Of a stretch of DNA of 64,000 nucleotides, positions 4,522 through 55,004 are shown piece after piece. Made by a program: the position numbers and the translations under genes. Under the pieces are notes generated by a model. It searched no databases. It was not told the DNA's origin and saw only the letters and a program-made list of their open reading frames with translations. Each line of letters begins with the position of its first letter. Positions within the stretch are counted from its first letter, which is position 1. This DNA comes from an uncultured Bacilli bacterium (GTDB taxonomy: Bacteria > Bacillota_I > Bacilli_A > RF39 > UBA660), in assembly GCA_934102055.1 (NCBI GenBank), contig CAKOSE010000002.1:35215-99214 (forward strand), in the 5' to 3' direction.

Positions 4522-4533
4522 AAGAACCACCTC

Positions 4534-5085
4534 TTAATTATACTTATTCATAACCTTATCAAAAGAAAAATTACAAAAATCATTTAATACATCACAAGTT
4601 CTAGGCAAAATAGAATCTATAAGAGCAAGATCATCTTTACTAAATTTACCTAAAACATAATCAGTAGCCTCCCCATTACTACTAGAAATCCCAATCCTAA
4701 ACCTCTTAAACTCATTAGAACCCAAACACCTCTCTATATTCCTAAGACCATTATGTCCGCCACAAGAACCAAAAAGTCTAAGACGAAACTTTAAAAAAGG
4801 TAAATCTAAATCATCACTAACAACTAAAATATCATTAATATCAATTTTAAAATACTTAACAAAACTAGAAACAACCTCACCAGATAAATTCATAAAAGAC
4901 ATAGGTTTAAGCAAAATAATCTTTTCACCAGAAACAAAAATCTCCGTATAATTACCATTAAATTTAAACTTATCAATACAAGTGTCATGAAACCTAGCAA
5001 AATTATCCAAAATCATAAAACCAAGATTATGTCTAGTATTTTCATACTCCTTACCAGGATTACCAAGACCAACAATCATCTTCAT
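4534..5085 (-). CDS. pth: peptidyl-tRNA hydrolase
   Basis: 183 aa. MKMIVGLGNPG...TRHNLGF and GGHNGLRNI are Pth signatures. Confidence 0.95.
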   Translation of the reverse strand: MKMIVGLGNPGKEYENTRHNLGFMILDNFARFHDTCIDKFKFNGNYTEIFVSGEKIILLKPMSFMNLSGEVVSSFVKYFKIDINDILVVSDDLDLPFLKFRLRLFGSCGGHNGLRNIERCLGSNEFKRFRIGISSSNGEATDYVLGKFSKDDLALIDSILPRTCDVLNDFCNFSFDKVMNKYN

Positions 5086-5093
5086 AAAATCAC

Positions 5094-5879
5094 CTACTCA
5101 TCAACATTAACAACAATAACTTTTGAATTTTCTGTTTCAACTTTATAAGTTCTAGAAAAAAGATCAACAGAAATAACCTTTCCAGGCTCTCCAGAAACAA
5201 CAACTTTCTCATTAACTCTAGGAAGACCCTTCTTATACTCACAATAACAATCATTTTCATAAGTAAGACAACACATTAACCTACCACAAACTCCATTAAT
5301 CTTCTGAGGATTTAAAGCCAAATTTTGATTCTTAGCCATATTGATAGAAACACTATTCATATCATCTAAAAAAGAAGAACAACAAAGCTTTCTACCACAA
5401 GGGCCATATCCCCCAACAGTTTTAGCCTTATCCCTTATGCCAATTTGACGAAGTTCAATCCTAGTCTTATAAACATAAGCAAGTTTCTTAGCAAGATCAC
5501 GAAAATCAACTCTCTCATCTGCCAAAAAATTAAAAACAAGTTGTTTTCTGTCAAAAGTAAAGTAAGCACTCAAAATTTTCATTTCAAGTCCAAGTTCATA
5601 AACAAAATCCTTAGCATCTTCAAGAGCCTTTTTAGCATCATCAAGATTCCTTTCATTCATTACAACATCAGAATCACTAGCAATACGAATAACATCCCCA
5701 AGAGGAACATTAAGCTTAGACTCATCAACATTAACAATATCAGTAATAACCTCACAAAATTGTTCACCACGATCAGTAGAAACAATAACAAAATCACCTT
5801 TCTTAACAATTAAATCATTTATTAAAAAATAACTAATCTTCTTAGAATCATTAACCCTAACACCAATTACCTTTTTCAA
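5094..5879 (-). CDS. yaaT: PSP1-domain protein YaaT/RicT
   Basis: 261 aa. Cys-rich PSP1 core GPCGRKLCCSSF...CGRLMCCLTYE. Sits next to holB as in B. subtilis. Confidence 0.9.
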   Translation of the reverse strand: MKKVIGVRVNDSKKISYFLINDLIVKKGDFVIVSTDRGEQFCEVITDIVNVDESKLNVPLGDVIRIASDSDVVMNERNLDDAKKALEDAKDFVYELGLEMKILSAYFTFDRKQLVFNFLADERVDFRDLAKKLAYVYKTRIELRQIGIRDKAKTVGGYGPCGRKLCCSSFLDDMNSVSINMAKNQNLALNPQKINGVCGRLMCCLTYENDCYCEYKKGLPRVNEKVVVSGEPGKVISVDLFSRTYKVETENSKVIVVNVDE

Positions 5880-5885
5880 AATACA

Positions 5886-6779
5886 TCACTTTCCTTCCAA
5901 CGAAATAATAAAATTATCTAAAAACAAATTAATATTAACATTAAATCTTAACTTTTCAATAAAATCAGTAAAAACATCAACCTTCCTAAATAAATCATCA
6001 ACACTATTACATGAAGTAAAACAAGAAAAATCAAAACAATCAGAAAAATATCTATACTCTCCAAAAACTAAAAAATTAAGAACATCACAATAAAGATAAT
6101 AACCAAAAACCAAAAATTCCCTAACACAACTACTTAAATCATAAAAATTGTCTAAAGTTAAAACAAAAGAACCATTTTCTTCAAAATAATTATAAATACT
6201 AATAAATTTATTACTATAAATATCATAAAATTCATTAAAATCATCAATAGATTCATCTTTATCAAACAAATCTCTAAAAATATTATAAATTACATTACTA
6301 TCATTAACAAGCCTAATAACCTGGCACCTAGAAACAACAGTAGGTAAAACATCTCTAATACTATTACAAAGTAAAATTGCCACAACATCAGAATCAGGTT
6401 CCTCTAAAAACTTAAGCAAACTATTCGAAGCAGATTTATTCATCTTAAAAGCATCTCTAATAATATAAACTTGCTTCTTAGAATCATTAGATTTCATAGA
6501 AAAAGAACTTTTTAAAAAAACAACATCATTCTTCTTTATCCCCTTATCATTACCTATAACCTTAAAATTAGGATAATTACCATTATCTATAAGAAAACAA
6601 ATCTTTTCATCATATACCCCATTACAAATTATAAACTTAGCCAAATCAACAGACAAATCATATCCATAAGAAACATCATTAGTCTCAATTAAATATGCAT
6701 GAGATATTCTTCCGTTACCAAGACCATTCATAAAATAATTATAAAAATTTTTCTGCGATTCCTTATATTTATCTAACAT
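5886..6779 (-). CDS. holB: DNA polymerase III delta-prime subunit
   Basis: 297 aa with clamp-loader features ISHAYLIE, LKFLEEP and VSRCQ. Confidence 0.85.
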   Translation of the reverse strand: MLDKYKESQKNFYNYFMNGLGNGRISHAYLIETNDVSYGYDLSVDLAKFIICNGVYDEKICFLIDNGNYPNFKVIGNDKGIKKNDVVFLKSSFSMKSNDSKKQVYIIRDAFKMNKSASNSLLKFLEEPDSDVVAILLCNSIRDVLPTVVSRCQVIRLVNDSNVIYNIFRDLFDKDESIDDFNEFYDIYSNKFISIYNYFEENGSFVLTLDNFYDLSSCVREFLVFGYYLYCDVLNFLVFGEYRYFSDCFDFSCFTSCNSVDDLFRKVDVFTDFIEKLRFNVNINLFLDNFIISLEGK

Positions 6780-6781
6780 AA

Positions 6782-6976
6782 TTATCCACCACCAAAAAAC
6801 ACTAATAACAACAAAACAAGCATAATAAAACCCGGAACACCTAATAATCCAACTATAACAATAGTAGCAATATTAACAGGAATATAAAGATCAACCCCAA
6901 CAGCCATAGTATCAAAAATATATATGATAAAAGGTGCTATCAAAAAAGATTTCAAAATTCCATATAACTTTTTCAA
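6782..6976 (-). CDS. bofA: BofA-like pro-sigma-K processing inhibitor (small 2-TM protein)
   Basis: DLYIPVNIATIVIVGLLGVPG resembles BofA LHIPINLVTAAISGILGIPG. Position after recR matches B. subtilis. TTG 6976 follows GAGGTG; the track start is 6991. Confidence 0.75.
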   Translation of the reverse strand: MKKLYGILKSFLIAPFIIYIFDTMAVGVDLYIPVNIATIVIVGLLGVPGFIMLVLLLLVFFGGG

Positions 6977-7011
6977 AGGAAAACACCTCAAAAAAATATA
7001 TGATATTTCCC

Positions 7012-7614
7012 TTAATCTAAAACCTCTTTCCTATTTTTAAGAGCAGATTCAAGCGTCAAAGCATCAATATAATCCATATCAGCACCAATAGGAACACCAT
7101 TCGCAATTCGTGATATCACAACATCAACATCAGATAAAATCTTCTTAATATATAAAATAGTAGTATCAGCTTCAATACCTGATTTAATAGCAAAAATAAT
7201 TTCTTTAATACCACCATCTTTTACCCTAGAAACAAGACTAGCAATACTAATATCAGAAGGGCCAATATCATCAAAAGGAGAAATAAGTCCACCCAAAACA
7301 TGATAATAGCCATCAAAATTACCAATTTTTTCCAATAAAAATAAATCTTTAGAATTTTCAACAACAACTAGTACATCCGAATTTCTAGCCTTATCATCAC
7401 AAACAAAACACAAATCACCATCAGTTATACAATTACAAATTTTACATTTTCTAATATCACTCTTGACTCTTTTTAAACTATTCCTAAAATCATCAACATC
7501 TGAATTTTCAAAATCAAAAAGAACAGAAAAAGCCATTCTTTCTGCCGTTTTTTGTCCTATACCAGGAAATTTCTTAAAACTTTCTATCAAATCATTAAGA
7601 CAAACAGGATACAT
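7012..7614 (-). CDS. recR: recombination protein RecR
   Basis: 200 aa with a C4 zinc finger CKICNC...CFVC and a Toprim domain. Confidence 0.95.
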   Translation of the reverse strand: MYPVCLNDLIESFKKFPGIGQKTAERMAFSVLFDFENSDVDDFRNSLKRVKSDIRKCKICNCITDGDLCFVCDDKARNSDVLVVVENSKDLFLLEKIGNFDGYYHVLGGLISPFDDIGPSDISIASLVSRVKDGGIKEIIFAIKSGIEADTTILYIKKILSDVDVVISRIANGVPIGADMDYIDALTLESALKNRKEVLD

Positions 7615-7615
7615 A

Positions 7616-7918
7616 TTACATCAAACCAGGCATCATACTAGAATACTTACCCATTTTTTCAGACATTTTTTTATCAACTTTTGAAAAAGCATCATTAAGA
7701 GCTAAAACAATCATATCCTCAAGCATTGTAATATCATCAGAAATCAATTCCTTAGCAGTATCATCAATCTTAATACTAACAACCTCTTTAGTCCCCTTAA
7801 CTGAAACAGTAACAAGAGAACTCCTTCCCTCAAACGTAGCAGAATCAATCTCATTCTTTATATTAGTAATATCCTTTTGCATAGCTTGAGCTTGTTTCAT
7901 TAAAGCTTGCATATTCAT
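7616..7918 (-). CDS. ybaB: YbaB/EbfC nucleoid-associated protein
   Basis: 100 aa, MNMQALMKQAQAMQKDI. Conserved dnaX-ybaB-recR order. Confidence 0.9.
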   Translation of the reverse strand: MNMQALMKQAQAMQKDITNIKNEIDSATFEGRSSLVTVSVKGTKEVVSIKIDDTAKELISDDITMLEDMIVLALNDAFSKVDKKMSEKMGKYSSMMPGLM

Positions 7919-7930
7919 AACTATTCCTCC

Positions 7931-9586
7931 TTATTTTATTTCAACAATATCATTACCAAATACATCATTAGCAACACTAACAATATCAGATAAATCACTT
8001 GTCTCTTCAACAATTATATCATTATTTTCCTCATTTTGTTCAATATATTTATATATTTTCCCAGATTTAATGTCAGATACATACTTATTCCTTAACTCAA
8101 CCCATTCATCACTAAGAACAAAAGCCAAATTATAAAACTTACCCATAACCAAATTAAATAACAGTTCCAATTTTGCCAAATTTTGGCAAGCATTTTCAAC
8201 AATAGATGAATAATTAGCAGATAAAATAATATCCTTTTCCCCCACTACTTCAACATTAGAATCAAGAAAATACGACACTATAGAAGAAAATTCCTTATTA
8301 TGAACATAATCATTAAAACCTTGCCATTTGCTAATAATATCTTTTTTTAAATCCTTATTAGCCAAAGCAAAAGCATTATTAATAATAATATCAAAATTCT
8401 TATAAACAAAATTAAGTTCATTCCTATTATTTCTAGATTCTTCAATAAACCCATCCGAAGCAGATTTTTCTTCTTTTTTAACTTTAACTTCAACTTCATC
8501 AGATTTTATTTCTTCTTCATTATTAACACTTTTATTTTCACAAATTATTTCCCGGGAAATAATTTTAGAATTTTTCAATTTATTAATAATTTTCAAAACA
8601 CCAATTTCAAAACACAACAGAGGATTAACAGCAAATTTCAATTCATAATTAATAGAACTAAACCCTTCGACCAAAATCAAAACACTATCTAAAGAAGAAT
8701 CAGTAGCAATACTCTTATTTTTCAAAAACAAAAGCATTTGCTCAGTTATCAAATCAACACTTTTTCCATAATTTACCAATTCTTCTATAGAATAAAATGT
8801 ACCCTTAATATCTTTATTAACAATACTATTATAAATGTTTTCAATCACATCATCATTTACCAAACCAACAACATCATAAAATAAATTTTCATCTATTTTA
8901 TTAGAAAAAGAAACAAGTTTATCCAATAAACCAATAGAATCCCTTAAACCACCATTACAATAAGTAGCAATCAAATTTAAAACTTTATCATCAAAAACAA
9001 TATTTTCTTTTTCACATATGTTTTCCAAACAACGAACTATATCATCAACACCAATTCTTTTAAAATCATAACATTGACATCTAGAAATAATAGTTTCAGG
9101 AACCTTATCCAACTCAGTAGTAGCAAGAATAAAAATAACATGTTTAGGAGGTTCCTCTAAAGTTTTTAATAATGCATTAAAAGCACTAACAGATAACATA
9201 TGAACCTCATCAATTATATAAACCTTATATTTAGATACACTAGGCATCAAAACAGCCTTTTCACGAATAGCTCTGATCTCATCAACACCATTATTAGATG
9301 CTGCATCAATTTCAATTATATCTGGATTACTCTTAGAATTAAACAACTGACAACTAGAACATTCATTGCAAGGATTATATCCATCCAAATTAGAGCAATT
9401 AACAATTTTAGCAATTAACTTAGCAATAGTAGTTTTCCCAGTTCCACGCGGACCAGAAAACAAATAAGCATGAAAAAATCTATTGTTTATAACAGAATTT
9501 TTTATAATTTCAACAATATATTTTTGACCATATACTTCATCTAAACTTTTAGGTCTATATTTTCTATACAAAGCCACATAATTCAC
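7931..9586 (-). CDS. dnaX: DNA polymerase III gamma/tau subunit
   Basis: AAA+ motifs GPRGTGKTT, IIDEVHML and SRCQ. Start moved to GTG 9586, with a GGGGGTG RBS 5 nt upstream; homology begins at NYVALYRKYRP. The extra 41 codons in the track overlie the promoter and a parS site. Confidence 0.93.
   Translation of the reverse strand: MNYVALYRKYRPKSLDEVYGQKYIVEIIKNSVINNRFFHAYLFSGPRGTGKTTIAKLIAKIVNCSNLDGYNPCNECSSCQLFNSKSNPDIIEIDAASNNGVDEIRAIREKAVLMPSVSKYKVYIIDEVHMLSVSAFNALLKTLEEPPKHVIFILATTELDKVPETIISRCQCYDFKRIGVDDIVRCLENICEKENIVFDDKVLNLIATYCNGGLRDSIGLLDKLVSFSNKIDENLFYDVVGLVNDDVIENIYNSIVNKDIKGTFYSIEELVNYGKSVDLITEQMLLFLKNKSIATDSSLDSVLILVEGFSSINYELKFAVNPLLCFEIGVLKIINKLKNSKIISREIICENKSVNNEEEIKSDEVEVKVKKEEKSASDGFIEESRNNRNELNFVYKNFDIIINNAFALANKDLKKDIISKWQGFNDYVHNKEFSSIVSYFLDSNVEVVGEKDIILSANYSSIVENACQNLAKLELLFNLVMGKFYNLAFVLSDEWVELRNKYVSDIKSGKIYKYIEQNEENNDIIVEETSDLSDIVSVANDVFGNDIVEIK
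8547..8560. promoter_or_regulatory. Noc-binding-site (NBS) palindrome inside dnaX coding sequence
   Basis: ATTTCCCGGGAAAT is a perfect match to the B. subtilis NBS consensus. It is embedded in the 24-bp palindrome AAATTATTTCCCGGGAAATAATTT (8542-8565) and encodes IISREII of DnaX. Confidence 0.7.
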
Positions 9587-9613
9587 GGTTACACCCCCAA
9601 AAAAGATAATATT

Positions 9614-9624
9614 ATTATAGCACA
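9614..9624 (-). promoter_or_regulatory. extended -10 promoter element for dnaX
   Basis: Minus strand reads TGTGCTATAAT about 28 nt upstream of the GTG start. Confidence 0.5.
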
Positions 9625-9679
9625 CATGCAAAAACATCTTCAATAAAAATAAATACTTTTCAGTCATTAATATAAGTAA

Positions 9680-9695
9680 TGTTTCACGTGAAACA
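9680..9695. promoter_or_regulatory. parS site 1 (perfect)
   Basis: TGTTTCACGTGAAACA. Centre of a 32-bp perfect palindrome at 9672-9703. Confidence 0.85.
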
Positions 9696-9763
9696 TTACT
9701 TATTAACAATATAAATTACTTCACCTAACATTACACTTAAAAATAAATATTTATGCAATCTCA

Positions 9764-9779
9764 TGTTTCACGTGAAACA
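9764..9779. promoter_or_regulatory. parS site 2 (perfect)
   Basis: TGTTTCACGTGAAACA. 22-bp palindrome at 9761-9782. Shares TCATG...CATGATCAT flanks with site 5. Confidence 0.85.
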
Positions 9780-9845
9780 TGATCATTTCTCTTATAAAAA
9801 AATAACAAAATGCAGATCATATGAGAATATAAACATACCCAAATT

Positions 9846-9859
9846 ATTTCCCGGGAAAT
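9846..9859. promoter_or_regulatory. Noc-binding-site palindrome 2
   Basis: ATTTCCCGGGAAAT within a 26-bp perfect palindrome at 9840-9865. Confidence 0.75.
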
Positions 9860-9952
9860 AATTTGTTACACATTCAACACAAAAAAATAACATTTAAGAG
9901 CAAATACATCACCCTTTTCATATTATTGTGACTTATAAATTAACACAACATA

Positions 9953-9968
9953 TGTTTCACGTGAAACA
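9953..9968. promoter_or_regulatory. parS site 3 (perfect)
   Basis: TGTTTCACGTGAAACA. 22-bp palindrome at 9950-9971. Confidence 0.85.
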
Positions 9969-10157
9969 TATATATTGACATCATAAAAATAGCAATAAAA
10001 TTAAGTATATTAATGAAACAACATCTTCACTTTGTTCAAGACAGAAATATGCTTTTAAAATACAACCACAACATATTGGATAGTTATTAACAATCTATAC
10101 TCTAGTTACAAGAATAAACTTCAATTTTTCTATCAATTACACTATTTGTATAGTATA

Positions 10158-10175
10158 GTTTAGTTTAAACTAAAC
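10158..10175. repeat. 18-bp perfect palindrome GTTTAGTTTAAACTAAAC of unknown function
   Basis: Read directly. Lies in the widest gap of the parS array. Shares the 13-mer TAGTTTAGTTTAA with 22708-22720. Confidence 0.6.
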
Positions 10176-10235
10176 ATTTCACATTTTTCACAAATATAAT
10201 AATTGCAAACTAACATTATTTAACACTCTTAACAA

Positions 10236-10251
10236 TGTTTCACGTGAAACA
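10236..10251. promoter_or_regulatory. parS site 4 (perfect)
   Basis: TGTTTCACGTGAAACA. 18-bp palindrome at 10235-10252. Confidence 0.85.
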
Positions 10252-10306
10252 TAAAATTTCACTAATTTACAAATTATCAATTACATATACTCCAATATAT
10301 CAAATT

Positions 10307-10320
10307 ATTTCCCGGGAAAT
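10307..10320. promoter_or_regulatory. Noc-binding-site palindrome 3
   Basis: ATTTCCCGGGAAAT within a 32-bp perfect palindrome at 10298-10329. Confidence 0.75.
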
Positions 10321-10363
10321 AATTTGATACACACTAACTATATATATATTAAAAAGATGATCA

Positions 10364-10379
10364 TGTTTCACGTGAAACA
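10364..10379. promoter_or_regulatory. parS site 5 (perfect), doubling as the tadA terminator hairpin
   Basis: TGTTTCACGTGAAACA at the centre of a 40-bp perfect palindrome (10352-10391). The palindrome includes the tadA stop (10383-10385) and is followed by a T-run on the minus strand. Confidence 0.85.
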
Positions 10380-10382
10380 TGA

Positions 10383-10790
10383 TCATCTTTTATCAATAAA
10401 AAATTGTTTTAACATATCAGAATACTCATAATTCCCTACTACACTCTCAACATTAATATATTCACGATTTTTACTTAAATTATTATTATAATTAGAATTC
10501 AATAAATAAAAAACATTTCTGATACGTGCTTCCGCTAAAGCATTAATACACATCGCGCAAGGCTTTAACGTAACATAAATATCACACTCATTTAAATACC
10601 AAGAATTCAAATATTTACATGCATCAATAATACATAAAATCTCAGCATGATTTACTGCTATATTAGAGGTGTTTTTAGTATTATGAGCTTTAGCAATTAT
10701 AATACCATCCCGTACAATAACAGCACCAACAGGAACATTTCCCTCATTAAAAGCCTTCTCAGCCTCAGAAATAGCAACCTTCATATACAT
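10383..10790 (-). CDS. tadA: tRNA-specific adenosine deaminase
   Basis: 135 aa with CDA zinc motifs HAE and PCAMC. ATG 10790 lies 7 nt after GGAGG. The 47-codon N-terminal extension in the track is the SRP RNA gene read as protein. Confidence 0.88.
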   Translation of the reverse strand: MYMKVAISEAEKAFNEGNVPVGAVIVRDGIIIAKAHNTKNTSNIAVNHAEILCIIDACKYLNSWYLNECDIYVTLKPCAMCINALAEARIRNVFYLLNSNYNNNLSKNREYINVESVVGNYEYSDMLKQFFIDKR

Positions 10791-10803
10791 AATAAAACCT
10801 CCA

Positions 10804-10884
10804 AAAAAAAAGTGCACACACATAGAGGATTTTAAGGCTGCTATCTTCCGATCCTGACCTAGTTCAACCATATGTGTTGCACTA
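10804..10884 (-). ncRNA. ffs: signal recognition particle RNA, minimal (4.5S-like) hairpin form
   Basis: Minus strand GUGCAACACAUAUGGUUGAACUAGGUCAGGAUCGGAAGAUAGCAGCCUUAAAAUCCUCUAUGUGUGUGCAC followed by U9. Domain IV GGUCAGG-AUC-GGAA-GAU-AGCAGCC matches E. coli GGUCAGGUCCGGAAGGAAGCAGCC with a compensatory stem change. The ends pair as a 71-nt hairpin at 10812-10882. Confidence 0.88.
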
Positions 10885-10889
10885 ACAAA

Positions 10890-10919
10890 ATTATATACCA
10901 AAGAACAAATAAATGTCAA
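10890..10919 (-). promoter_or_regulatory. sigma-A type promoter of the SRP RNA
   Basis: Minus strand has TTGACA (10919-10914), an 18-nt spacer, then TATAAT (10895-10890). The hairpin starts about 8 nt downstream. Confidence 0.7.
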
Positions 10920-11027
10920 CATAGATATCACTTTTTTCTAAACTAGCAACAAATTATATATTTATTAACAATTGTAATTTAACAAAAATAAATAAAACTA
11001 AAAGTTAACCATATATTTATAAAAAAA

Positions 11028-11043
11028 TGTTTCACATGAAACT
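11028..11043. promoter_or_regulatory. parS-like site 6 (degenerate)
   Basis: TGTTTCACATGAAACT has two mismatches, one being CG to CA at the central CpG. Flanked by A/T runs. Confidence 0.5.
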
Positions 11044-11151
11044 ATAAAAAACAAAATATTCATCTTTTTTTACGGAAAAAATAGACTTATTAACAATTAG
11101 AAAGTGCTTATAAAAACTTGAATTTACAAATTTTTGAGCAAAAAAAAAGAA

Positions 11152-11167
11152 TGTTTCACGTGAAACA
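11152..11167. promoter_or_regulatory. parS site 7 (perfect), doubling as the gyrA terminator hairpin
   Basis: TGTTTCACGTGAAACA in a 20-bp palindrome (11150-11169) that overlaps the gyrA stop (11168-11170). Followed by CUUUUUUUUU on the minus strand. Confidence 0.85.
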
Positions 11168-13618
11168 TTACTCACTATCAACACTCTCTTCTTCTAAAAC
11201 GTCATCTACTTGCTTAGCTAATACTGTTACAGATGTAACAATTTGTCTATCTTTTAGATGCATCAATCTAACACCTTGAGTATTTCTTCTCAAAGTAGAA
11301 ACATTATTAACATCAAGCCTAATTACAGTACCCTCATCAGTAGTAATGATTATATCCTCATCACCAGAAACTGATTTAAATGCAACAATTAAACCATTCT
11401 TATCAGTAATATTAAGAGCTTTAACACCTTTACTACCACGATGAGTTAAACGATATTCATTAACATCTGTCTTTTTGCCATATCCCTTTTCAGTAACAAC
11501 TAGTATTAGTTCAGAGTTATTAACAATTTCTGCTCCGATTACCTTAGCATCAATTAAATCAATTCCCTTGACACCAGAGGCTCCTCGCCCCATAACACGA
11601 ACATCCGTTTCATTAAATCTAACCATTCTTCCAGCATTAGAAGCAATAATAACTTCATCATTACCACTAGTCTTCTTAACTCCTATTAACTCATCATTAT
11701 CCTTTAAGATAATAGCAATTTTACCATTCTTTCTAATAGAATCAAACTCACTGATATCAGTTCTTTTAACAAGTCCATTAACAGTAAAGAAAATTAAATA
11801 CTTACTTTCATCTTCCTTTTCAACAGGAATAATAGCATTAATAATCTCATCCTTTTCCAAAGGCAAGATATTAACAACAGGAACACCTTTAGATTGCCTG
11901 CTAAACTCAGGTAGCTCATAACATTTAATACGATATACCTTTCCACGATTACTGAAAAATAACAAATAATCATGGCTATAACAATTAACTAACTTTTCAA
12001 CAATATCTTCATCATTAGTAGACATACCCTTAATACCTACTCCACCACGATTTTGACTTCGATAAGTATCAGAATTCAATCTTTTAATATAACCATTTTT
12101 TGTCATAGAAACAATTATATCATCATTAGGTATCAAAGATTCATCCTCTATATAATCAATTGCAGTCATATCAATATTAGTACGACGTTCATCACCATAT
12201 TTATCAGCAATCTCCTTCATTTCACTCTTAATAATTTCATTAACCTTATCCTCACTACCAAGAATACTACGAAGTTCCTCAATTAATTTAAGTGTTTCCG
12301 CCAAATCTCTCTCAATCTTATCCCTTTCAAGACCAGTCAAACGTCTCAATTTAAGTTCCAAAATAGCATCAGCTTGTGTATCACTTATAGCATATAAATT
12401 TTTAAGCCTATCCTTAGCAATTACATCACTCTCACTCTCACGGATAATTTTAATAAAATCATCCAAATGATCAAGAGCAATTTTATAACCCTCTAAAATA
12501 TGTGCTTTTGCAAGAGCCTTATCCAAATCAAACCTAGTTCGACGAATAATAACTTCCTTTTGATGTTCAATATACTTAACAATAATATCTTTAAGACCTA
12601 AAAGCTTTGGAACGCCCTGATCTAACATAAGTAATATAATACCAAAAGTATTTTGAAGTTGAGTATGTTTATATAAATTATTTAACACAACATTAGCATT
12701 AGCATCTTTTTTAAGAGTAATAACAATCTTAACACCAAAATCACTACCATTTTCCTCATGATAATCAGCAATACCATCAAGAATCTTATCTCTTACCAAA
12801 GAAGCAATACGATTCTTCAAATCCATCGTATTAAGTCCATAAGGTATCTCAGAAATTACTATTTTACTTTTATGCCCACTCTCCTCAATAGAAGCCTTAC
12901 ATCTAACAGTAATTGTACCACGACCAGTTTCATAAGCCTTGCGAATACCACTATTACCAAGAATGATAGCACCAGTCGGAAAATCAGGACCCTTAATATG
13001 TTGCATCAATTCATCTAGTGTAATATCATTATTATCAATATAAGCAATACATCCATTAACAACTTCCCTCAAATTATGAGGAGGAATATTAGTAGCCATA
13101 CCAACTGCAATACCCATAGTACCATTAACCAAAATATTAGGAAATCTACTAGGTAAAACAACAGGTTCCTTCTCTTCCTCATCAAAATTTGGAATAAAAT
13201 CAACAGTATTCTTATTTAAATCCCTTAATAATTCCAAACTAATCTTTGACAAACGTGCTTCAGTATAACGCATAGCAGCAGCACCATCGCCATCCATATT
13301 ACCAAAGTTACCATGCCCATCAACAAGCATATAACGATAACTAAAATCCTGAGCCATTCTCACCATTGCTTCGTATATAGAACTATCTCCATGCGGATGA
13401 TATTTTCCCATAACATCCCCAACTATTCTAGCACACTTACGATGACCCTTATCAGGCATATAACCAGAATCAAACATCGAATACAAAATACGACGATGAA
13501 CTGGTTTTAATCCATCACGAAGATCAGGTAAAGCACGAGCCACTATAACACTCATAGAATAGTCCAAAAATGACTTTTTAACTTCATTTACAATATTATT
13601 TTCTTCTAATCTATCCAT
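11168..13618 (-). CDS. gyrA: DNA gyrase subunit A
   Basis: 816 aa. Catalytic-Tyr region [14 protein letters not shown] and a C-terminal beta-pinwheel. Confidence 0.97.
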
Positions 13619-13629
13619 TCTTAAACCTC

Positions 13630-16639
<3,010 letters not shown>

Positions 16640-16755
16640 AACCAAAAATTAAATAAAAAATTCCCCAAATTAGCATCAACTCCCAAAACCAGTACTCCAG
16701 TACTTACTATTACATTATACCATAATAACGCCGTAAAAAAAACGATTTTTACATT

Positions 16756-17211
16756 TTAATCGCTTTTTTTTCCACTTTTTCTACTCTTAGAAATAGTCTC
16801 TAGCATATTACATCTAAAAATCTGATTTTTAATAGAAAAATATGGACAATTAACAACAATAGATTCACCATTAATAAAATTAATTTTAGTTCTCTTACCA
16901 TACTTTTCTACATTTCTTATCTTCTTATAAGAAATCCACGAAACACTAGAAGAATTAATAGCTTCCGTAGGAAAAAATATCAAATCTCTAGTTTCCTCAA
17001 CAATAATTGGAGTCTTATAAATACTACCAAGCATGCTTTTAGAACCAAGTACTCTTCCCTCAAAACTACTACCAAAATATCTACAAGAGTTTTCCATAAT
17101 AGAATAAGGAACATCATTAACAACGTAATCATCATCTACTTCTATTACTCTAGTCTTATCATCATCAAAAGACATAATAGCAAGAGTCTCATCATTAATT
17201 TCATATTTCAT
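16756..17211 (-). CDS. comK: ComK-family competence transcription factor homologue
   Basis: Aligns by eye with B. subtilis ComK: YEINDETLAI/YEVNGATIAV, SCRYFGSSFEGR/SCRFFGSSYAGR, KTPIIVEE..LIFFPT/KPPIMVDP..IFLFPT, WISY/WISH. ATG 17211 follows AGGGGGTG. Confidence 0.8.
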   Translation of the reverse strand: MKYEINDETLAIMSFDDDKTRVIEVDDDYVVNDVPYSIMENSCRYFGSSFEGRVLGSKSMLGSIYKTPIIVEETRDLIFFPTEAINSSSVSWISYKKIRNVEKYGKRTKINFINGESIVVNCPYFSIKNQIFRCNMLETISKSRKSGKKSD

Positions 17212-17324
17212 AGAATTCACCCCCTAAAACAATAAATTTCGCAATAAAAAATATTGCAATTTCTAAATTAACACTTTCACATGTCGAAAAAGATAGAAAT
17301 TTGTAGAAAACAAAAGAAAAAATA

Positions 17325-17403: not shown

Positions 17404-17438
17404 AAGAACTTATTAACAATTGTTGTTAATAAGTTCTT
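17404..17438. promoter_or_regulatory. inverted pair of DnaA-box-like 9-mers overlapping the dnaN stop
   Basis: 15-nt arms at 17404-17418 and 17424-17438 contain TTATTAACA (17410-17418) and TGTTAATAA (17424-17432), with a 5-nt spacer. Confidence 0.55.
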
Positions 17439-18544
17439 ATAGGTAATATCAAACATACAAGCTCTTCACTATCATCATTTTTAAGCAAAATAGGTTTAAT
17501 CTCACCAACAAATGTAATAATAACATTACGAGATTTAATAGTACGAAGAGCATCCATCATATACTTAGCACTAAAAGAAATCTTAATATCATTATCACAA
17601 GAAACATTCATTTTCTCCTCAACTTTACCTATTTCAAGAGACATTGAAGTAATCTTAAGAAGATTATTCTTTATTTCCATAGTAATTATATTATTATCAG
17701 TATCATTATTTAAAATACTAGCTCTATCAACCATATTATAAAATTCATTACAATCAAGTTTTAAATCAAAAATAGAATCACTAGGAATTAAATTCTTAGT
17801 ATTAGGATAAGTACCACTAATAAGCCTAGACTGAAATAAAATATCATTAAACTTAAATATAACCTTATTACTAAATAAATGCATTTCAATAACCTCATCA
17901 TCCCCAGAAGACAAAAGTTTCAAAAGTTCATTTAAATTCTTACTAGGAATAATAATATCAATACCATTATTAACACCATTTGTTAATAACTTCTTCCTAA
18001 GAGCAAGCCTATAAGAATCAGTAGCACTACATTCAAGATTATTTCCATCAATCTTAAAATTAACACCAGTTAAAACAACCCTAGCTTCATCCAAAGAACA
18101 AGCATAATTAGTTTGTAAAATCATAGATCTAAACTCATCAATACTTATACTAATAAATTCTGGAGATAAATCTAAATTAATATCAGGATATTCCCTAGCT
18201 TCAATACCATTCAAATTAAACTCACTATTCTCAGTAAAAATTATAATCTTATGATCATCTATAATTTCAATATTAATAAACTCAGAATCAAGTTTTCTAA
18301 TAATATCAAGAATATATTTTCCTTTAATAACTATACTACCAGTATTATCAATAATTAAATTATCCCCCTTAGAAATTACAGTCTGAATAGTAATATCATT
18401 ATCTGAAGCAGTAAGTACTAACCTATCTCTATGTAATTCAAACTTAATACCAGATAAAATAGGAATAATATTCTTTGTAGAAATTGCTTTAGAAACATTA
18501 TTTAAAGCTTCAAGTAAAACTACTCTTTTAATTTTTAATTTCAT
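17426..18544 (-). CDS. dnaN: DNA polymerase III beta sliding clamp
   Basis: 372 aa of three-domain clamp length, N-terminus MKLKIKRVVLLEALNNVSKAIS. dnaA-dnaN synteny. Confidence 0.95.
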   Translation of the reverse strand: MKLKIKRVVLLEALNNVSKAISTKNIIPILSGIKFELHRDRLVLTASDNDITIQTVISKGDNLIIDNTGSIVIKGKYILDIIRKLDSEFINIEIIDDHKIIIFTENSEFNLNGIEAREYPDINLDLSPEFISISIDEFRSMILQTNYACSLDEARVVLTGVNFKIDGNNLECSATDSYRLALRKKLLTNGVNNGIDIIIPSKNLNELLKLLSSGDDEVIEMHLFSNKVIFKFNDILFQSRLISGTYPNTKNLIPSDSIFDLKLDCNEFYNMVDRASILNNDTDNNIITMEIKNNLLKITSMSLEIGKVEEKMNVSCDNDIKISFSAKYMMDALRTIKSRNVIITFVGEIKPILLKNDDSEELVCLILPIRTY

Positions 18545-18687
18545 AAATATACCTTCTTTCTTTTTTTATTATTAATATATTAATTTTATTATTACTGTTA
18601 ATATTGTTAATAAGTCCTAAAAAGCCTTTAATATCAACAGATAATACCAACAATAATTGTTAATAACTATTAACAATTTTAACAATT
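18545..18687 (-). promoter_or_regulatory. oriC part 2 (dnaA-dnaN spacer): tandem DnaA boxes, TAA trios and AT-rich unwinding candidate
   Basis: Minus strand reads TTATTAACA (18613-18605), ATATTAACA (18604-18596), G, then TAA-TAA-TAA (18594-18586), then about 40 nt of almost pure A/T up to the dnaN start. Further boxes at 18658-18666 and 18667-18675. Confidence 0.7.
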
Positions 18688-20058
18688 CTATGTTAATTGC
18701 TTCTCAATATTGTTAATAGCATCATTTAAATCTCTATTAATTTTCATTTCCCTTTCAATCTTATTACAGGCATGAATAACAGTAGCATGATTTTTTCCAG
18801 AAAACTCAATTCCAATTCTTTCAAAAGATTCATCAGTAAGTTTTCTACACAAATACATAGCAACTTGTCTAGGAATAGCAAGGTTTGGAGTCCTTTTCTT
18901 AGATTTCATATCTTCAAAAGAAATATTATAGAAATTAGCAACAATCTTTTGGATACGCCGTATATTATTTTGATCTGTAACAGCGTCTTTTCTAGTAAAA
19001 TCACGTAAAGCTTCCATTGCAAACTCAAGAGAAATATCAGTAACACACATAATCGCAGAATAAGCAACTAATCTAGTAATAGACCCCTCAAGCTGCCTAA
19101 CATCATTACCAATATTCGATGCAATATAAGCAATAACTTCTTCATTAATAAAAATATTTTCACCTTTTAATTTTTTTCTAATAATTGCAATCTTAAGAGA
19201 ATAATCCGGAGGACTAATATCAACTTGTAACCCCCAAGCAAAGCGTGTCCTAAGTCTATCTTCAAGAACTTTCAAATCCTCAGGAGATCTATCCGAGGAA
19301 ACAATAATTTGCTTACTATCATTATATAAGTTATTAAATGTATGAAAAAACTCTTGCTGAGTTTTTTCTGCCCCACCCAAAAACTGAATATCATCAATCA
19401 AAAGAACATCAACATTTCTATATTTATTCTTAAAAAACTCTACATAATCTAGATTATTGCCACTATTTCCTTTTCTAGCAATGCCAGTAAAATCATTCAT
19501 AAAGTCATCACTAGTAACATAAAGAACTCTCTTTTTATATTTATTCTCAATATAATTTCCTATAGCATGCATAAGATGAGTTTTCCCAAGACCACTATTT
19601 CCGTATATAAACAAAGGATTATACATAGTACCAGGATTTTCAGCAACAGCAAGAGCAGCAGCTTGAGCAAATTTATTAGATTCACCAACTACAAAACTCT
19701 CAAAAGTATAATTCTTATTAAGATTAGAAACATGAACACCAACAAAAGAATTATTATCATCAGAAGAATCTTTATCTTGATTTTTATCACTTTCCAAAAA
19801 ATCAGAAACATTCTCCTTAAGTATATATATAATGTTATCAACAGGTTCTGTTAATAACTTATTAAAACTATCAATAATAACATCTCTATAAGTAGAATCT
19901 ATATGAGTTTTATAAAGAAGTAAAGGAACAACAATCCTAATATTGTTCTTATCAATACCAATAAAATCAATAGCCATAAACCAAGTCTGATAAGTAATAG
20001 GGTCAACAATATTACTAATATTATCTAAAACTTTTTGCCACAACAATTTATTGTTCAT
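18688..20058 (-). CDS. dnaA: chromosomal replication initiator DnaA
   Basis: 456 aa. AAA+ motifs GNSGLGKTHL and LLIDDIQFL, plus the C-terminal DnaA-box-binding domain. Confidence 0.97.
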   Translation of the reverse strand: MNNKLLWQKVLDNISNIVDPITYQTWFMAIDFIGIDKNNIRIVVPLLLYKTHIDSTYRDVIIDSFNKLLTEPVDNIIYILKENVSDFLESDKNQDKDSSDDNNSFVGVHVSNLNKNYTFESFVVGESNKFAQAAALAVAENPGTMYNPLFIYGNSGLGKTHLMHAIGNYIENKYKKRVLYVTSDDFMNDFTGIARKGNSGNNLDYVEFFKNKYRNVDVLLIDDIQFLGGAEKTQQEFFHTFNNLYNDSKQIIVSSDRSPEDLKVLEDRLRTRFAWGLQVDISPPDYSLKIAIIRKKLKGENIFINEEVIAYIASNIGNDVRQLEGSITRLVAYSAIMCVTDISLEFAMEALRDFTRKDAVTDQNNIRRIQKIVANFYNISFEDMKSKKRTPNLAIPRQVAMYLCRKLTDESFERIGIEFSGKNHATVIHACNKIEREMKINRDLNDAINNIEKQLT

Positions 20059-20327
20059 AATACCATCTCCCCATTTCTGATAAAAGTTAATAACCTGTAT
20101 TTAATTGTAATACATTTTTATTTTTTTGAAAAGATAAAAAACTTATTAACAGAGTTATTAACATACTTATTAACAAATCTTTTCCTTTGATTACATACTA
20201 TAAAATAGATTTTAACAAATTTCAAGTAAAAAGTTGTTAACAACATTAACAATTGTTAAAAAGAAAATTGTTAATTAACGTTAATATTGTTAATAAGTAT
20301 CATTTTAAACAACAACAAACAAAACTA
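20059..20327. promoter_or_regulatory. oriC part 1: DnaA-box cluster upstream of dnaA
   Basis: Three direct TTATTAACA copies in 12-bp register (20143, 20155, 20167), an inverted copy at 20288-20296, several 1-2 mismatch copies at 20085-20280, and an AT-rich tract at 20101-20140. Strand and composition switch occur here. Confidence 0.75.
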
Positions 20328-20357
20328 TTGACAAACACCCTACTTTTCATATACAAT
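20328..20357 (+). promoter_or_regulatory. sigma-A type promoter of rpmH-rnpA operon
   Basis: TTGACA (20328-20333), spacer, then TACAAT (20352-20357). Confidence 0.6.
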
Positions 20358-20388
20358 AAAACCGATCAATTGATTGGAGGTGCACAAC

Positions 20389-36700: not shown

Positions 36701-37765
36701 ATGAACTTAGAAAAAGAAATTTTTGACATATCCTTACAAGATATAATTCCAAATAGATTTCAACCAAGAGAAATGTTTGATGATGAAGCACTAAAAGAAT
36801 TATCACAATCAATAAAAGAACACGGAGTAATTCAACCAATTATAGTAAGAAAAGTTGGAGACAAATACGAAATAATCGCCGGAGAAAGAAGATTCAGAGC
36901 ATCACAATTAGCAGGAAAAACAACAATACCTGCCCTAGTAAGAGACATAGATGATAAAGAAGCCGCAAAAGTTGCCTTGCTAGAAAATCTTCAAAGAAGT
37001 AACCTTACTCCAATCGAAGAAGCAAAAACATACCAAACAATTCTGAAATTGGATAATATTACACAAGATGAGTTAGCGCAAAATCTAGGAAAGTCACAAT
37101 CAACAATAGCAAACAAACTAAGACTATTAACTCTAGATGAAGAAGTACAGACTGCCCTACTAAACTCACAAATATCAGAAAGACACGCAAGGAGCTTGCT
37201 AGGACTAGATCTAAATACTCAAAAAGAACTATTACACAAAATAATAAACGAAAAACTAACAGTAAAAGCCCTAGATGAAGAAATAATGAGAAGAACAGGT
37301 AAAATACCAGAAGAAAAAGTAGTACCAGACATGCAAGAAGGGAGCATAAATCAAATGACCAATAATCCTCAAGCAGTAGAAGTACCACAAATAAATCAAG
37401 TACCAAATATTATGCAAGCGCCTATGCCAAATAACATAAATCAAGTACAAGAAAAACAAAAAGAACCAGAAATTAATAAACAACAAGAACCAATAGAACA
37501 TAAAGAAAACATATTTGATAGACTAAGAGTAAAAGAAGAACCAGAACAAGAACCACAAGAAAATAATCAAACAGTAATAGGAAATAACAATCAACAACAA
37601 CAAGAACCAAGAAACTTTGGTAACATCTATGATTTAAGATTTGCAATAAATAACTTTAGACAAGCAATTCAAAACACAGAAAAATTTGGTTTCAAAGTAA
37701 ATGCACAAGAATATGATCATCCAGACAAATACCAAATAGTAATAGAAATAGACAAAAAGAACTAA
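36701..37765 (+). CDS. noc: nucleoid occlusion protein Noc (ParB paralogue) with a long Q/N/P/E-rich insertion
   Basis: GERRFRAS box. Recognition region GKSQSTIANKLRLL...ISERHAR matches B. subtilis Noc (GKGQSTIANKLRLL...ITERHAR). rsmG-noc-soj-spo0J order, and perfect NBS sites are present in the window. Confidence 0.8.
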   Translation: MNLEKEIFDISLQDIIPNRFQPREMFDDEALKELSQSIKEHGVIQPIIVRKVGDKYEIIAGERRFRASQLAGKTTIPALVRDIDDKEAAKVALLENLQRSNLTPIEEAKTYQTILKLDNITQDELAQNLGKSQSTIANKLRLLTLDEEVQTALLNSQISERHARSLLGLDLNTQKELLHKIINEKLTVKALDEEIMRRTGKIPEEKVVPDMQEGSINQMTNNPQAVEVPQINQVPNIMQAPMPNNINQVQEKQKEPEINKQQEPIEHKENIFDRLRVKEEPEQEPQENNQTVIGNNNQQQQEPRNFGNIYDLRFAINNFRQAIQNTEKFGFKVNAQEYDHPDKYQIVIEIDKKN

Positions 37766-37862: not shown

Positions 37863-38648
37863 ATGGGAAAAGTAATATCATTAATAAATCAAAAAGGCGG
37901 AGTAGGAAAAACAACAACAAGTATAAACTTATCTGCATCACTAGCTCTGCTAGGAAAAAAAATACTATTAATAGATTTAGATCCACAATGTAATGCAACA
38001 ACAGGAATAGGATTAAACAAAGGAGACATAGAAAAAAGTATTTATAACGTCTTTAATGGAACATCAACAATCGAAGAAGCAATAATAAAAACAAAATATA
38101 AAAACTTATATGTTCTTCCAGCAAATATAAATTTAGCAGGAATAGATATTGAACTAGACCAAACAGAAACACTAGAATCAGTATCAAAATCAGAAAGATT
38201 AAAAGAACACATAAATAAAATAAAAAACACTTACGATTACATAATAATAGATTGTCCACCAGCACTAGGAATAATAACAACAAATGCTTTAACAGCCTCA
38301 GATTCAGTAATTATTCCAGTACAATGTGAATTTTTTGCACTAGAAGGAATAACACAACTATTAAAAGCTATTATGTACACACAAGCAAATCTAAACCCAA
38401 ATCTAACAATAGAAGGAGTATTATTAACAATGTTAGATGCAAGAACAAATCTAGGTTTAGAAGTAGTAGAAGAAATAAGAAGTTACTTTAAAGACAAAGT
38501 ATATAACACAATAATACCAAGATTAATTAGACTAACAGAAGCACCATCGCACGGAAAACCAATAGTAGCATATGATCCAAAATCAAGAGGATCAGAAGCA
38601 TATCTAAATTTAGCCAAAGAGGTGATCAAAGGAAATGGAACAAACTAA
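37863..38648 (+). CDS. soj: chromosome partitioning ATPase ParA/Soj
   Basis: 261 aa. Deviant Walker A NQKGGVGKTT. Confidence 0.96.
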   Translation: MGKVISLINQKGGVGKTTTSINLSASLALLGKKILLIDLDPQCNATTGIGLNKGDIEKSIYNVFNGTSTIEEAIIKTKYKNLYVLPANINLAGIDIELDQTETLESVSKSERLKEHINKIKNTYDYIIIDCPPALGIITTNALTASDSVIIPVQCEFFALEGITQLLKAIMYTQANLNPNLTIEGVLLTMLDARTNLGLEVVEEIRSYFKDKVYNTIIPRLIRLTEAPSHGKPIVAYDPKSRGSEAYLNLAKEVIKGNGTN

Positions 38649-39513
38649 AAGAAGAGCCCTAGGAAGAGGACTAGAAGAACTATTCAACATAGAAGACATA
38701 AATTACAATAAAATGGAAGAAAAAATAATGGAAACAGTAGATGAAGAAGAAATAAAAGAAATACCATTATCAAAACTAAGAGTAAATCCATATCAACCAA
38801 GAAAAACATTTAATGAAGATGCCCTAAAAGAACTAGCAGAATCAATAAAAGAACACGGAGTAATTCAACCAATAATAGTAAAGAAAAGCATAAAAGACTA
38901 CGAAATAGTCGCTGGAGAAAGAAGATTTAGAGCATCGAAATTAGCAGGAAAAGAAACAATTCCATGTATAATAAGAAACTTCACAGATGAACAAATGATG
39001 GAAATAGCAGTGCTGGAAAACCTTCAAAGAGAAAACCTAAACTCAATCGAAGAAGCCATGGCTTACGAATCATTAATGAAAAACCTAAATCTAACACAAG
39101 AACAAGTAGCAAAAAAAGTAGGAAAAAGCCGTAGCTATATAACAAACTTACTAGGATTACTAAACTTACCACAACCAGTAAAAGATCTTGTAAAACAAGG
39201 AAAACTTACACAAAGTCATGCAAGAACTCTATCAAAACTAGAAGATCAAACAAAAATAATAGATCTTGCAAATAAAATAATAAACGAAAATCTAAACGTC
39301 AGACAAATCGAAGAAACAACAAGACAAAAAGAATACACAAAAAAAGAACATCAACAAAGAAAAACAAATCCAAAAGAATACGAAACCCTAGAAAGAGAAC
39401 TAGAAAACTATCTAGGAACAAAAGTAACGATAAAACCAAGAAAAATAGAAATAAACTACGAAAATACAAATGATTTAAACAGAATATTAGAAATAATAAA
39501 CTTTAATAAATAG
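38635..39513 (+). CDS. spo0J: chromosome partitioning protein ParB/Spo0J
   Basis: 292 aa. GERRFRAS box. ParB-type recognition region GKSRSYITNLLGLL...LTQSHAR. Confidence 0.95.
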   Translation: MEQTKRRALGRGLEELFNIEDINYNKMEEKIMETVDEEEIKEIPLSKLRVNPYQPRKTFNEDALKELAESIKEHGVIQPIIVKKSIKDYEIVAGERRFRASKLAGKETIPCIIRNFTDEQMMEIAVLENLQRENLNSIEEAMAYESLMKNLNLTQEQVAKKVGKSRSYITNLLGLLNLPQPVKDLVKQGKLTQSHARTLSKLEDQTKIIDLANKIINENLNVRQIEETTRQKEYTKKEHQQRKTNPKEYETLERELENYLGTKVTIKPRKIEINYENTNDLNRILEIINFNK

Positions 39514-54906: not shown

Positions 54907-55004
54907 AAAAATCACCTCTAATAAAAGTTATGAAAAAACAAAAAAAATATACTAGAAAAAACATAATAAAAATTATATAATATAATAAGAAAGAAGGAAT
55001 ATAT

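Follow-up and report, generated by a model that had tools for sequence, protein, structure and literature searches.

A putative composite centromere of parS and Noc-binding sites between gyrA and dnaX in an uncultured Bacilli bacterium

Sites and genes at the locus

We analysed 64,000 nucleotides (nt) of DNA from an uncultured Bacilli bacterium (GenBank assembly GCA_934102055.1, contig CAKOSE010000002.1, positions 35,215 to 99,214), referred to below as the window; figures given for 72 kb cover the window plus an 8.4 kb extension of the contig to the right (L169). Between gyrA and dnaX, the window holds a dense array of palindromes that match parS, the site bound by the partition protein Spo0J/ParB, interleaved with palindromes that match the binding site of the ParB-family protein Noc (Noc-binding site, NBS). 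An earlier note on the window, made from the letters alone, had described the parS copies as a centromere-like array, centred on a gap without open reading frames (ORFs) and placed 9-10 kb from the replication origin oriC.

Six perfect copies of TGTTTCACGTGAAACA are present in the window, at 9680, 9764, 9953, 10236, 10364 and 11152, and a further copy, TGTTTCACATGAAACT, lies at 11028 with two mismatches. Each of the six perfect copies is part of the 18-mer ATGTTTCACGTGAAACAT, and the set matches the parS consensus of Firmicutes, TGTTNCACGTGAAACA. At up to two mismatches the number expected by chance is 0.00, and none of 100 dinucleotide shuffles reached seven matches. No additional copy exists at up to three mismatches anywhere in the 64 kb, spo0J (38635-39513) included, and neither parS nor NBS occurs in the further 8.4 kb of the same contig. 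Five of the sites lie in the 796-bp gap that separates the tadA stop from the dnaX start, at spacings of 84, 189, 283 and 128 bp. We thus confirm the positions, the 18-mer extension, the spacings and the absence of other copies given in the earlier note, as well as its identification of the 16-mers as canonical Firmicute parS in a window that also encodes soj and spo0J, and its statement that the gap (9587-10382) has no credible ORF.

The array is not made of parS alone. Three perfect copies of TATTTCCCGGGAAATA are found, at 8546, 9845 and 10306, two of them in the ORF-free gap and one inside dnaX. This 16-mer is the NBS of Bacillus subtilis. Each of its half-sites departs from parS at two positions, and ParB and Noc tell the two sites apart strictly (PMC7383237, PMC7333895). 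All three copies are confined to 1.8 kb, the other 70 kb having none; the window contains no further NBS at up to two mismatches, and the chance expectation there at up to three is 0.28. The two gap copies, each at the centre of the 26-bp palindrome CAAATTATTTCCCGGGAAATAATTTG (at 9840 and 10301), belong to a 33-nt direct repeat built around that palindrome, and the extended form of the site is AAAWTATTTCCCGGGAAATAWTTT. Since perfect NBS stand among the parS sites, the array is therefore a mixed one, of six to seven parS and three NBS between 8546 and 11168. It extends from the gyrA stop to dnaX codon 342 (about 2.6 kb) and encloses the gene for the signal recognition particle (SRP) RNA and tadA. 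A view of the array as simply centred on the gap therefore does not fit, and the parS-only description has to give way to a composite one: perfect NBS are interleaved, and a gene for a Noc-type paralogue adjoins soj-spo0J. The sites are as follows.

8546..8561, NBS 1: perfect TATTTCCCGGGAAATA inside dnaX codons 342-347, where it encodes ISREI, in the variable region after the ATPase domains
9679..9696, parS 1: perfect 18-mer ATGTTTCACGTGAAACAT, core of a 32-bp perfect palindrome (9672-9703)
9763..9780, parS 2: perfect 18-mer
9840..9865, NBS 2: 26-bp perfect palindrome CAAATTATTTCCCGGGAAATAATTTG, with its 16-bp core at 9845-9860
9952..9969, parS 3: perfect 18-mer
10235..10252, parS 4: perfect 18-mer
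10301..10326, NBS 3: the 26-bp palindrome CAAATTATTTCCCGGGAAATAATTTG again, with its 16-bp core at 10306-10321
10363..10380, parS 5: perfect 18-mer, core of a 40-bp perfect palindrome (10352-10391) that overlaps the tadA stop codon
11028..11043, degenerate parS: TGTTTCACATGAAACT, two mismatches
11151..11168, parS 6: perfect 18-mer adjoining the gyrA stop codon

The window array has no tandem repeat according to Tandem Repeats Finder (TRF), and each site stands in unique sequence. A tandem-repeat or CRISPR-like origin of the window array was considered and dropped, TRF showing nothing relevant. An 18-bp perfect palindrome, GTTTAGTTTAAACTAAAC, also lies mid-gap (10160-10177); elsewhere it was seen only in the same species (L146). 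A third class of site was rejected, GTTTAGTTTAAACTAAAC being confined to that species and no other GC-containing 14-bp palindrome recurring in the arrays; when the arrays were searched for enriched k-mers, the SRP RNA gene was the sole result.

The genes and signals around the array, all on the - strand, are the following.

7012-7614, - strand: recR
7616-7918, - strand: ybaB
7931-9586, - strand: dnaX, DNA polymerase III gamma/tau (NF004046, 476 bits), which bounds the gap and holds NBS 1
9614..9643, - strand: dnaX promoter-like site by consensus match (TTGAAG, 18-nt spacer, TG, TATAAT)
9587-10382: gap of 796 bp between the tadA stop and the GTG start of dnaX
10383-10793, - strand: tadA, tRNA adenosine deaminase-like, enclosed by the array
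10803-10888, - strand: SRP RNA gene (ffs/scr), found with Rfam, enclosed by the array
10919-10890, - strand: sigma-70 promoter match, 12/12 (TTGACA, 18-nt spacer, TATAAT), directly upstream of the SRP RNA gene
11168-13618, - strand: gyrA, the boundary of the array on the oriC side
13630-15546, - strand: gyrB
15539-16645, - strand: recF
16756-17220, - strand: ORF of 154 amino acids (aa) between dnaN and recF, with no NCBIfam match
17426-18544, - strand: dnaN
18688-20058, - strand: dnaA

Firmicutes usually carry a small S4-domain gene at the place of the 154-aa ORF. The dnaX promoter-like site lies downstream of every gap site, between the array and dnaX, and four parS plus two further palindromes occupy the spacer between a terminator-like hairpin and this promoter. 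ORFs in the gap do not exceed 35 aa, and the majority overlap the palindromes themselves. No Rfam family was found in the gap, either at the gathering cutoff or at E ≤ 1, besides meaningless microRNA matches on the palindromes. A small RNA, a riboswitch or an ORF was therefore rejected as the content of the gap, Rfam giving only the SRP RNA and no ORF being credible.

Part of the array has the geometry of intrinsic terminators. On the - strand, which is the gyrA-sense strand, parS 6 is followed by a C and nine T, an intrinsic-terminator shape, and the degenerate copy at 11028 by an A and seven T; parS 5 is followed on the same strand by TTTTAAT, and its 40-bp palindrome overlaps the tadA stop. 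A single terminator-like match was flagged by the scan on the + strand, at 9761-9782, and in relatives the first parS often comes 6-60 bp after gyrA. From this geometry, the parS sites beside gyrA and tadA probably double as transcription terminators, and the parS 5 palindrome may serve as the tadA terminator as well. The question arises whether the palindromes could be structural elements altogether, that is, intrinsic terminators, cruciforms or a repeat of the repetitive extragenic palindrome (REP) or miniature inverted-repeat transposable element (MITE) kind, with no ParB-family protein involved. However, four of the six perfect sites have no run of T in the sense direction, and terminator geometry is absent at 9679, 9952 and 10235. 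Terminators need neither an invariant 18-mer identical to parS nor a second palindrome identical to NBS, retained across genomes whose DnaX proteins are only 35-40% identical. One site lies inside a coding region, the array has no matches in plasmid or phage collections, and the 72 kb contain no copies outside 8546-11168, which excludes a dispersed repeat (REP/MITE) within that length; the generic repeat that the earlier note had named as its own alternative is thus not seen over that length. We regard a purely structural role as very unlikely.

Conservation in related genomes

A search seeded with DnaX was run on 185,579 species genomes, one per species. It turned up no close relative: DnaX identity is at most 41%, and GyrA identity is 62-68%; these relatives are 'uncultured Bacilli bacterium' metagenome-assembled genomes (MAGs) from guts and rumens, with 22-31% GC, and the exact window sequence is present in human-gut (Hadza) metagenome assemblies of ENA. 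The gene order dnaA-dnaN-recF-gyrB-gyrA-tadA-dnaX is conserved in them, through to mfd. At the gyrA-SRP RNA-tadA-dnaX locus, usually in the gyrA-tadA spacer, eleven of the related species genomes have arrays of parS, of NBS or of both, and in each of the ten relatives tested the SRP RNA gene is immediately upstream of tadA, beside or within the array region. The arrays listed here differ in composition.

L003: six perfect parS
L054: five perfect parS, with a 167-bp tandem period
L009 and L011: four perfect parS each
L005 and L015: parS at a period of about 44 bp
L007: six parS alternating with six perfect NBS, in a 126-bp unit (the source is a circular MAG, OZ006970.1)
L002: at least seven NBS alternating with near-parS sites, in a 62-bp unit

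Tandem units of 62, 126 or 167 bp are thus found among the relatives, with alternation of parS and NBS in two genomes. The other 69 Bacillota dnaX loci (1.0 Mb) contain no arrays, only four perfect parS and three perfect NBS in all. Arrays of the same site therefore occupy one syntenic locus in many relatives, a comparison that the earlier note had proposed, and this speaks strongly for a ParB-loading centromere under selection, and against a generic repeat.

A blind scan was also made, for a perfect parS, 35-65 nt and a perfect NBS, in 241 million metagenome records and with no constraint on genes. It returned 84 stretches in 80 loci, every one of which (80/80) adjoins gyrA, tadA or dnaX, from genomes of 21-33% GC; among them is L146, which belongs to the species of the window and has an identical layout. 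The same pattern has zero matches in 2.9 million viral contigs. Over 92 arrays, in which the metagenome sample was chosen by a pattern demanding at least one parS-NBS pair, the median array has six sites (four parS and two NBS) in a span of 520 bp, and the maximum is 18 sites.

The sites themselves appear to be what is kept. In the 92 arrays, parS copies with 0, 1, 2 and 3 mismatches number 299, 73, 15 and 9, and NBS copies 226, 32, 5 and 10. When classified by type, 305 sites are pure parS, 232 pure NBS and only five are hybrids, a near-absence that two homodimers, each with its own specificity, would be expected to produce. Just outside parS, 99% of sites have an A, and the NBS flank is AAAW. 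The spacers are unalignable even among relatives at 62-72% DnaX identity, so that the sites are the only invariant columns.

The site inside dnaX offers a further case. A site is kept at codons 341-397 in 16 of the 53 complete dnaX genes of the clade; the NBS 16-mer is translated as ISREI in 11 genes and, in another frame, as YFPGN in 3 genes, a VSRET reading is also among the frames, and in two genomes with parS-only arrays the internal site is parS. As the site is read in differing frames, constraint at the protein level cannot explain its retention.

An alternative scenario is a plain parS centromere on which only Spo0J acts, the NBS-like palindromes being unbound or part of a genome-wide scatter of Noc sites. 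The parS-only arrays of L003, L009, L011, L054, L005 and L015 would fit this scenario, as would single NBS outside arrays (for example at +3446, +5197 and +9440 relative to the dnaX start in L003, and upstream of pth in both L092 and L154). However, the NBS of the window are confined to 1.8 kb of the 72 kb, parS and NBS are combined in one tandemly duplicated unit in L007 and L002, and perfect parS-NBS pairs at 35-65 nt were found at this locus only among the 241 million metagenome records. Adjacent pairs of sites are also of mixed type more often than of the same type (348 versus 180), a count that is biased by the search pattern. We consider the plain parS scenario unlikely, without treating it as negligible.

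The resemblance to a plasmid centromere, which the earlier note had stressed, raises the possibility that the array is what is left of the partition locus of a plasmid or phage that had integrated. On 11 IMG/VR viral contigs the same 18-mer does form tight arrays, and to that extent the resemblance stands. Yet these 11 contigs carry no NBS and no genes of the clade, and the mixed pattern occurs on none of the 2.9 million viral contigs. The array lies amid housekeeping genes, in conserved synteny, at more than 90 loci; the window has no mobile-element genes and no GC anomaly; and the presumed binders are encoded by the chromosomal noc-soj-spo0J genes. A remnant of this kind is extremely improbable. 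As to the layout on two of the viral contigs, L174 has four sites at 26-bp spacing (5982-6075) and L178 has six (6137-6460), the 18-mer being identical and the contigs unrelated and phage/plasmid-like.

The candidate binding proteins

Across dnaA from the array, the gene order is rsmG, a Noc-type ParB paralogue, soj and spo0J.

36701..37765, + strand: Noc-type ParB paralogue, 354 aa, presumed NBS binder
37863..38648, + strand: soj (parA)
38635..39513, + strand: spo0J (parB), presumed parS binder

Spo0J has the N-terminal peptide RRALGRGLEELF, an AGERRFRA (GERRFRA) box, GKSRS and an R at helix-turn-helix position 173, and among solved structures it matches Spo0J (6sdk) at 225 bits and Noc at 168. 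For the paralogue the order is reversed, with 209 bits for Noc and 184 for Spo0J. Both proteins retain the cytidine triphosphate (CTP)-binding box.

Specificity for parS or NBS depends on four residues, R173/T179/A184/G201 in ParB and Q/K/K/R in Noc, and a K at either 179 or 184 suffices (PMC7383237). The helix-turn-helix of the paralogue, GKSQSTIANKLRLLT...ISERHAR, has Q173, K179, T184 and R201 (Q-K-T-R). In the aligned homologues of the clade, Q, K and R are kept, while position 184 is T in nine and N in one. The paralogue begins with MNLEKEIFDISL, only 4-5 residues ahead of the first strand of the ParB N-domain (in its AlphaFold model this strand begins at residue 7), and its N-terminal net charge is -2. 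Residues 206-310 form a disordered linker rich in P, Q and N, of about 100 aa here and up to about 200 aa in relatives, in which the motif HKENIFDKLRV is conserved across the clade and reads HKENIFDRLRV in the window protein. We take the C-terminal domain to resemble that of B. subtilis Noc. The paralogue is presumed, from these features, to act as an NBS-binding, CTP-dependent clamp of the ParB family that lacks one defining feature of Noc, the N-terminal membrane helix.

Replication origin and strand skew

The canonical DnaA box, TTATCCACA, is absent from the window. Another motif, TTATTAACA(AT), is present in 24 copies where 3.1 are expected, and TTATTAACAAT is the sequence that we name as candidate DnaA target. 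The copies concentrate in two stretches, 17410-20296 and 8520-11525.

18545..20388: putative oriC region with dnaA; TTATTAACA boxes at 18605, 18658, 20143, 20155, 20167 and 20288
8520-11525: eight TTATTAACA(AT) boxes around the parS/NBS array, at 8520, 8814, 9700, 10084, 10962, 11087, 11304 and 11517, all on the + strand

Upstream of dnaA there are three TTATTAACA copies at 12-bp spacing and one inverted copy, and the interval between dnaA and dnaN holds two more. DnaA boxes classically occupy these positions at Firmicute origins, which favours placing oriC at dnaA, at 7-10 kb from the array. From its position, TTATTAACA is probably the DnaA box of this organism, and the copies around the array hint that DnaA binds within the centromere.

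A second function is thus worth considering, in which the locus controls replication: DnaA boxes and ParB/Noc sites together would regulate initiation, by titration of DnaA, by Spo0J control of Soj, or in a role like that of Noc in Staphylococcus aureus, which controls replication initiation (PMC5540599), and segregation would not be the main function. The abundance of TTATTAACA, its clustering exactly at Firmicute DnaA-box positions, the eight same-strand copies over the array and the frequent placement of a box 13 bp from parS in near relatives all point in this direction. Against it, the assignment of TTATTAACA as DnaA box comes from position alone, the clade-wide enrichment near the sites is only about 2-fold (0.54 versus 0.24 per kb), and the box is absent from the arrays of distant relatives that retain parS and NBS. 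Replication control as the main function appears rather improbable to us; as an added function it is compatible with a centromere.

The strand skew is at odds with this placement of the origin. Genes on the - strand have a coding-strand GC skew at third codon positions (GC3) of +0.57 to +1.0 and a corresponding AT3 skew of -0.4 to -0.67, and most + strand genes have values of -0.25 to -0.8 and +0.3 to +0.7, respectively; the exception is yidC, beside dnaA (GC3 +0.13). The + strand is C/A-rich on both sides of dnaA and for 8.4 kb past the window, and the skew follows the physical strand. With one polarity throughout, the whole 72 kb would, by the usual rule, be a single replichore. A switch was sought further to the right, and the polarity is unchanged over the 8.4 kb up to the end of the contigs. 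No switch is seen in the near relatives L086 and L083 either, whereas the more distant L143 does switch at dnaA. A moved origin or unidirectional replication are possible readings of the skew. The distance of 9-10 kb from oriC given in the earlier note is accordingly borne out by gene order and by the TTATTAACA clusters around dnaA, but not by the skew.

SpoIIR, a GerQ-like protein, a PP2C phosphatase and MreB are encoded as well (at 61826-62359 and about 54589-54915 in the window and at 17823-18812 in L169), from which the organism looks like a walled and possibly spore-forming rod rather than a wall-less Mollicute-like cell.

A probable composite centromere and its possible mode of action

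We think it likely, on the sequence evidence assembled above, that the stretch 8546-11168 is a composite chromosomal centromere, in which six parS serve Spo0J/ParB and three interleaved NBS serve the Noc-type paralogue. Any specific role for the Noc-type protein is proposed with far less confidence.

Several observations weigh against such a centromere. NBS are also scattered every 5-10 kb in several relatives, and further parS or NBS may lie beyond the 72 kb examined. Terminator geometry is seen in three of the seven parS-like palindromes, whose conservation could stem in part from it. The third-codon skew does not switch at dnaA, which speaks against proximity to the origin. As for the proteins, the Spo0J of the window is uncommon at three of the four specificity positions (R-L-N-S), and the paralogue scores 301.7 bits on TIGR04285 (nucleoid_noc), under the cutoff of 315 (Spo0J scores 248.5 on the same model). 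Finally, the paralogue has no N-terminal amphipathic membrane helix and no in-frame upstream extension, and the helix is likewise absent in all ten aligned homologues of the clade. Adams et al. predicted such a helix in all the Noc proteins that they examined, and Noc no longer functions once it is removed (PMC4331003). The function of the Noc-type protein cannot be read from Bacillus. The conserved linker motif was considered as a relocated membrane helix and rejected, its hydrophobic moment being low (0.3), with AlphaFold confidence below 50 and no clear amphipathicity.

If the composite centromere exists, its mode of action can be sketched by analogy with the loading of ParB and Noc clamps in B. 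subtilis (PMC8429893, PMC7333895). Each dimer would nucleate on its own palindrome, bind CTP, close into a clamp and slide away onto neighbouring DNA. With 9-10 loading sites in 2.6 kb of mostly untranscribed spacer, local loading would be very high and might produce one dense, mixed nucleoprotein complex. The ParB part of this complex would engage Soj and load SMC. The Noc-type protein, having no helix, would probably not perform classical membrane tethering, and might instead add a second adaptor or interface through its long disordered linker with the conserved motif.

A broader reading, plausible in our eyes but held tentatively, is that the two-protein centromere is shared clade-wide by these low-GC gut and rumen Bacilli at gyrA-ffs-tadA-dnaX, that the helix-less, specificity-switched Noc is either an evolutionary intermediate between ParB and Noc or a re-purposed Noc, and that in the lineage of the window replication may not start bidirectionally at the canonical oriC. 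In the intermediate version, specificity would have come first, NBS would have been born beside parS by two base changes, and the membrane helix would have been acquired later.

Comparison with known systems

B. subtilis has about ten single parS dispersed over a large origin-proximal region, one of them inside spo0J. The system described here shares with it the identical 16-bp palindrome, the position of soj-spo0J downstream of rsmG and noc, the GERRxRA CTP motif and the N-terminal ParA-stimulating peptide of Spo0J. It differs in having six perfect parS within 1.5 kb, none in spo0J, and in their interleaving with NBS.

Clusters of parS on chromosomes are known from other phyla: Corynebacterium glutamicum has ten parS in 35 kb, 73 kb from oriC (PMC7083940), Pseudomonas aeruginosa four near oriC and Streptomyces at least 20 (PMC4368675, PMC7333895). 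The novelty of clustering as such was therefore overstated when the window array was first likened to a plasmid centromere. The common trait is a single ParB/SMC loading zone made of several consensus parS, mostly intergenic. Here, however, the density is about 20 times higher than in C. glutamicum (one site per 160-280 bp, against one per 3.5 kb), the arrays of relatives grow by tandem duplication, and a second type of site, for a second ParB-family protein, is built in.

With the Noc-NBS system of B. subtilis and S. aureus, the locus has in common the 16-bp NBS itself, the rsmG-noc-soj-spo0J position, NBS-type specificity residues, CTP motifs and, presumably, a Noc-like C-terminal domain. 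NBS are otherwise known only as dispersed sites (PMC5540599), whereas here they are stacked with parS, and the protein has a disordered linker of 100-200 aa in place of the N-terminal helix.

Plasmid iteron centromeres (F sopC; P1, type Ia parS) also consist of many close palindromes for ParB-family proteins, F sopC being made of 12 tandem 43-bp units, and the arrays of L002, L007 and L054 have true head-to-tail units. In contrast, the present arrays are chromosomal and lie between housekeeping genes, parAB is 27 kb away, and the window array is not tandem. To our knowledge, no plasmid centromere mixes sites for two paralogous ParB proteins. In B. subtilis, extra classes of binding sites are concentrated in the origin region, such as the ram sites for origin anchoring by RacA and the clusters of DnaA boxes. 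No RacA homologue or ram motif was found, although neither was looked for, and the likeness to these systems is functional only, for an organism with sporulation genes and a DnaA-box-like motif enriched in the array.

In the literature, which we covered incompletely, neither arrays that interleave parS with NBS nor a Noc without the helix were found to be described. Why parS sites multiply and cluster was listed as an open question in a 2020 review (PMC7333895), and work on how Noc evolved from ParB has until now been limited to mutating the two end states (PMC7383237). The arrays provide a natural system that bears on both. They turn over fast by tandem duplication while the 16-mers stay perfect, with parS and NBS kept as two discrete classes, and the Noc-type protein would combine a new DNA specificity with the absence of the membrane-binding module, as a natural intermediate or as a re-purposed Noc. 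The pairing of parS and NBS between gyrA and dnaX may also serve as a landmark for this poorly characterised gut and rumen group in metagenomes.

A last observation concerns the origin region of one near relative. In L083, a contig from a Hadza gut, a block of genes is found between mnmE and mnmG (1857-7197), comprising helix-turn-helix regulators, unknown genes and a TraG/TrwB-type coupling protein; this block may be an integrated element.

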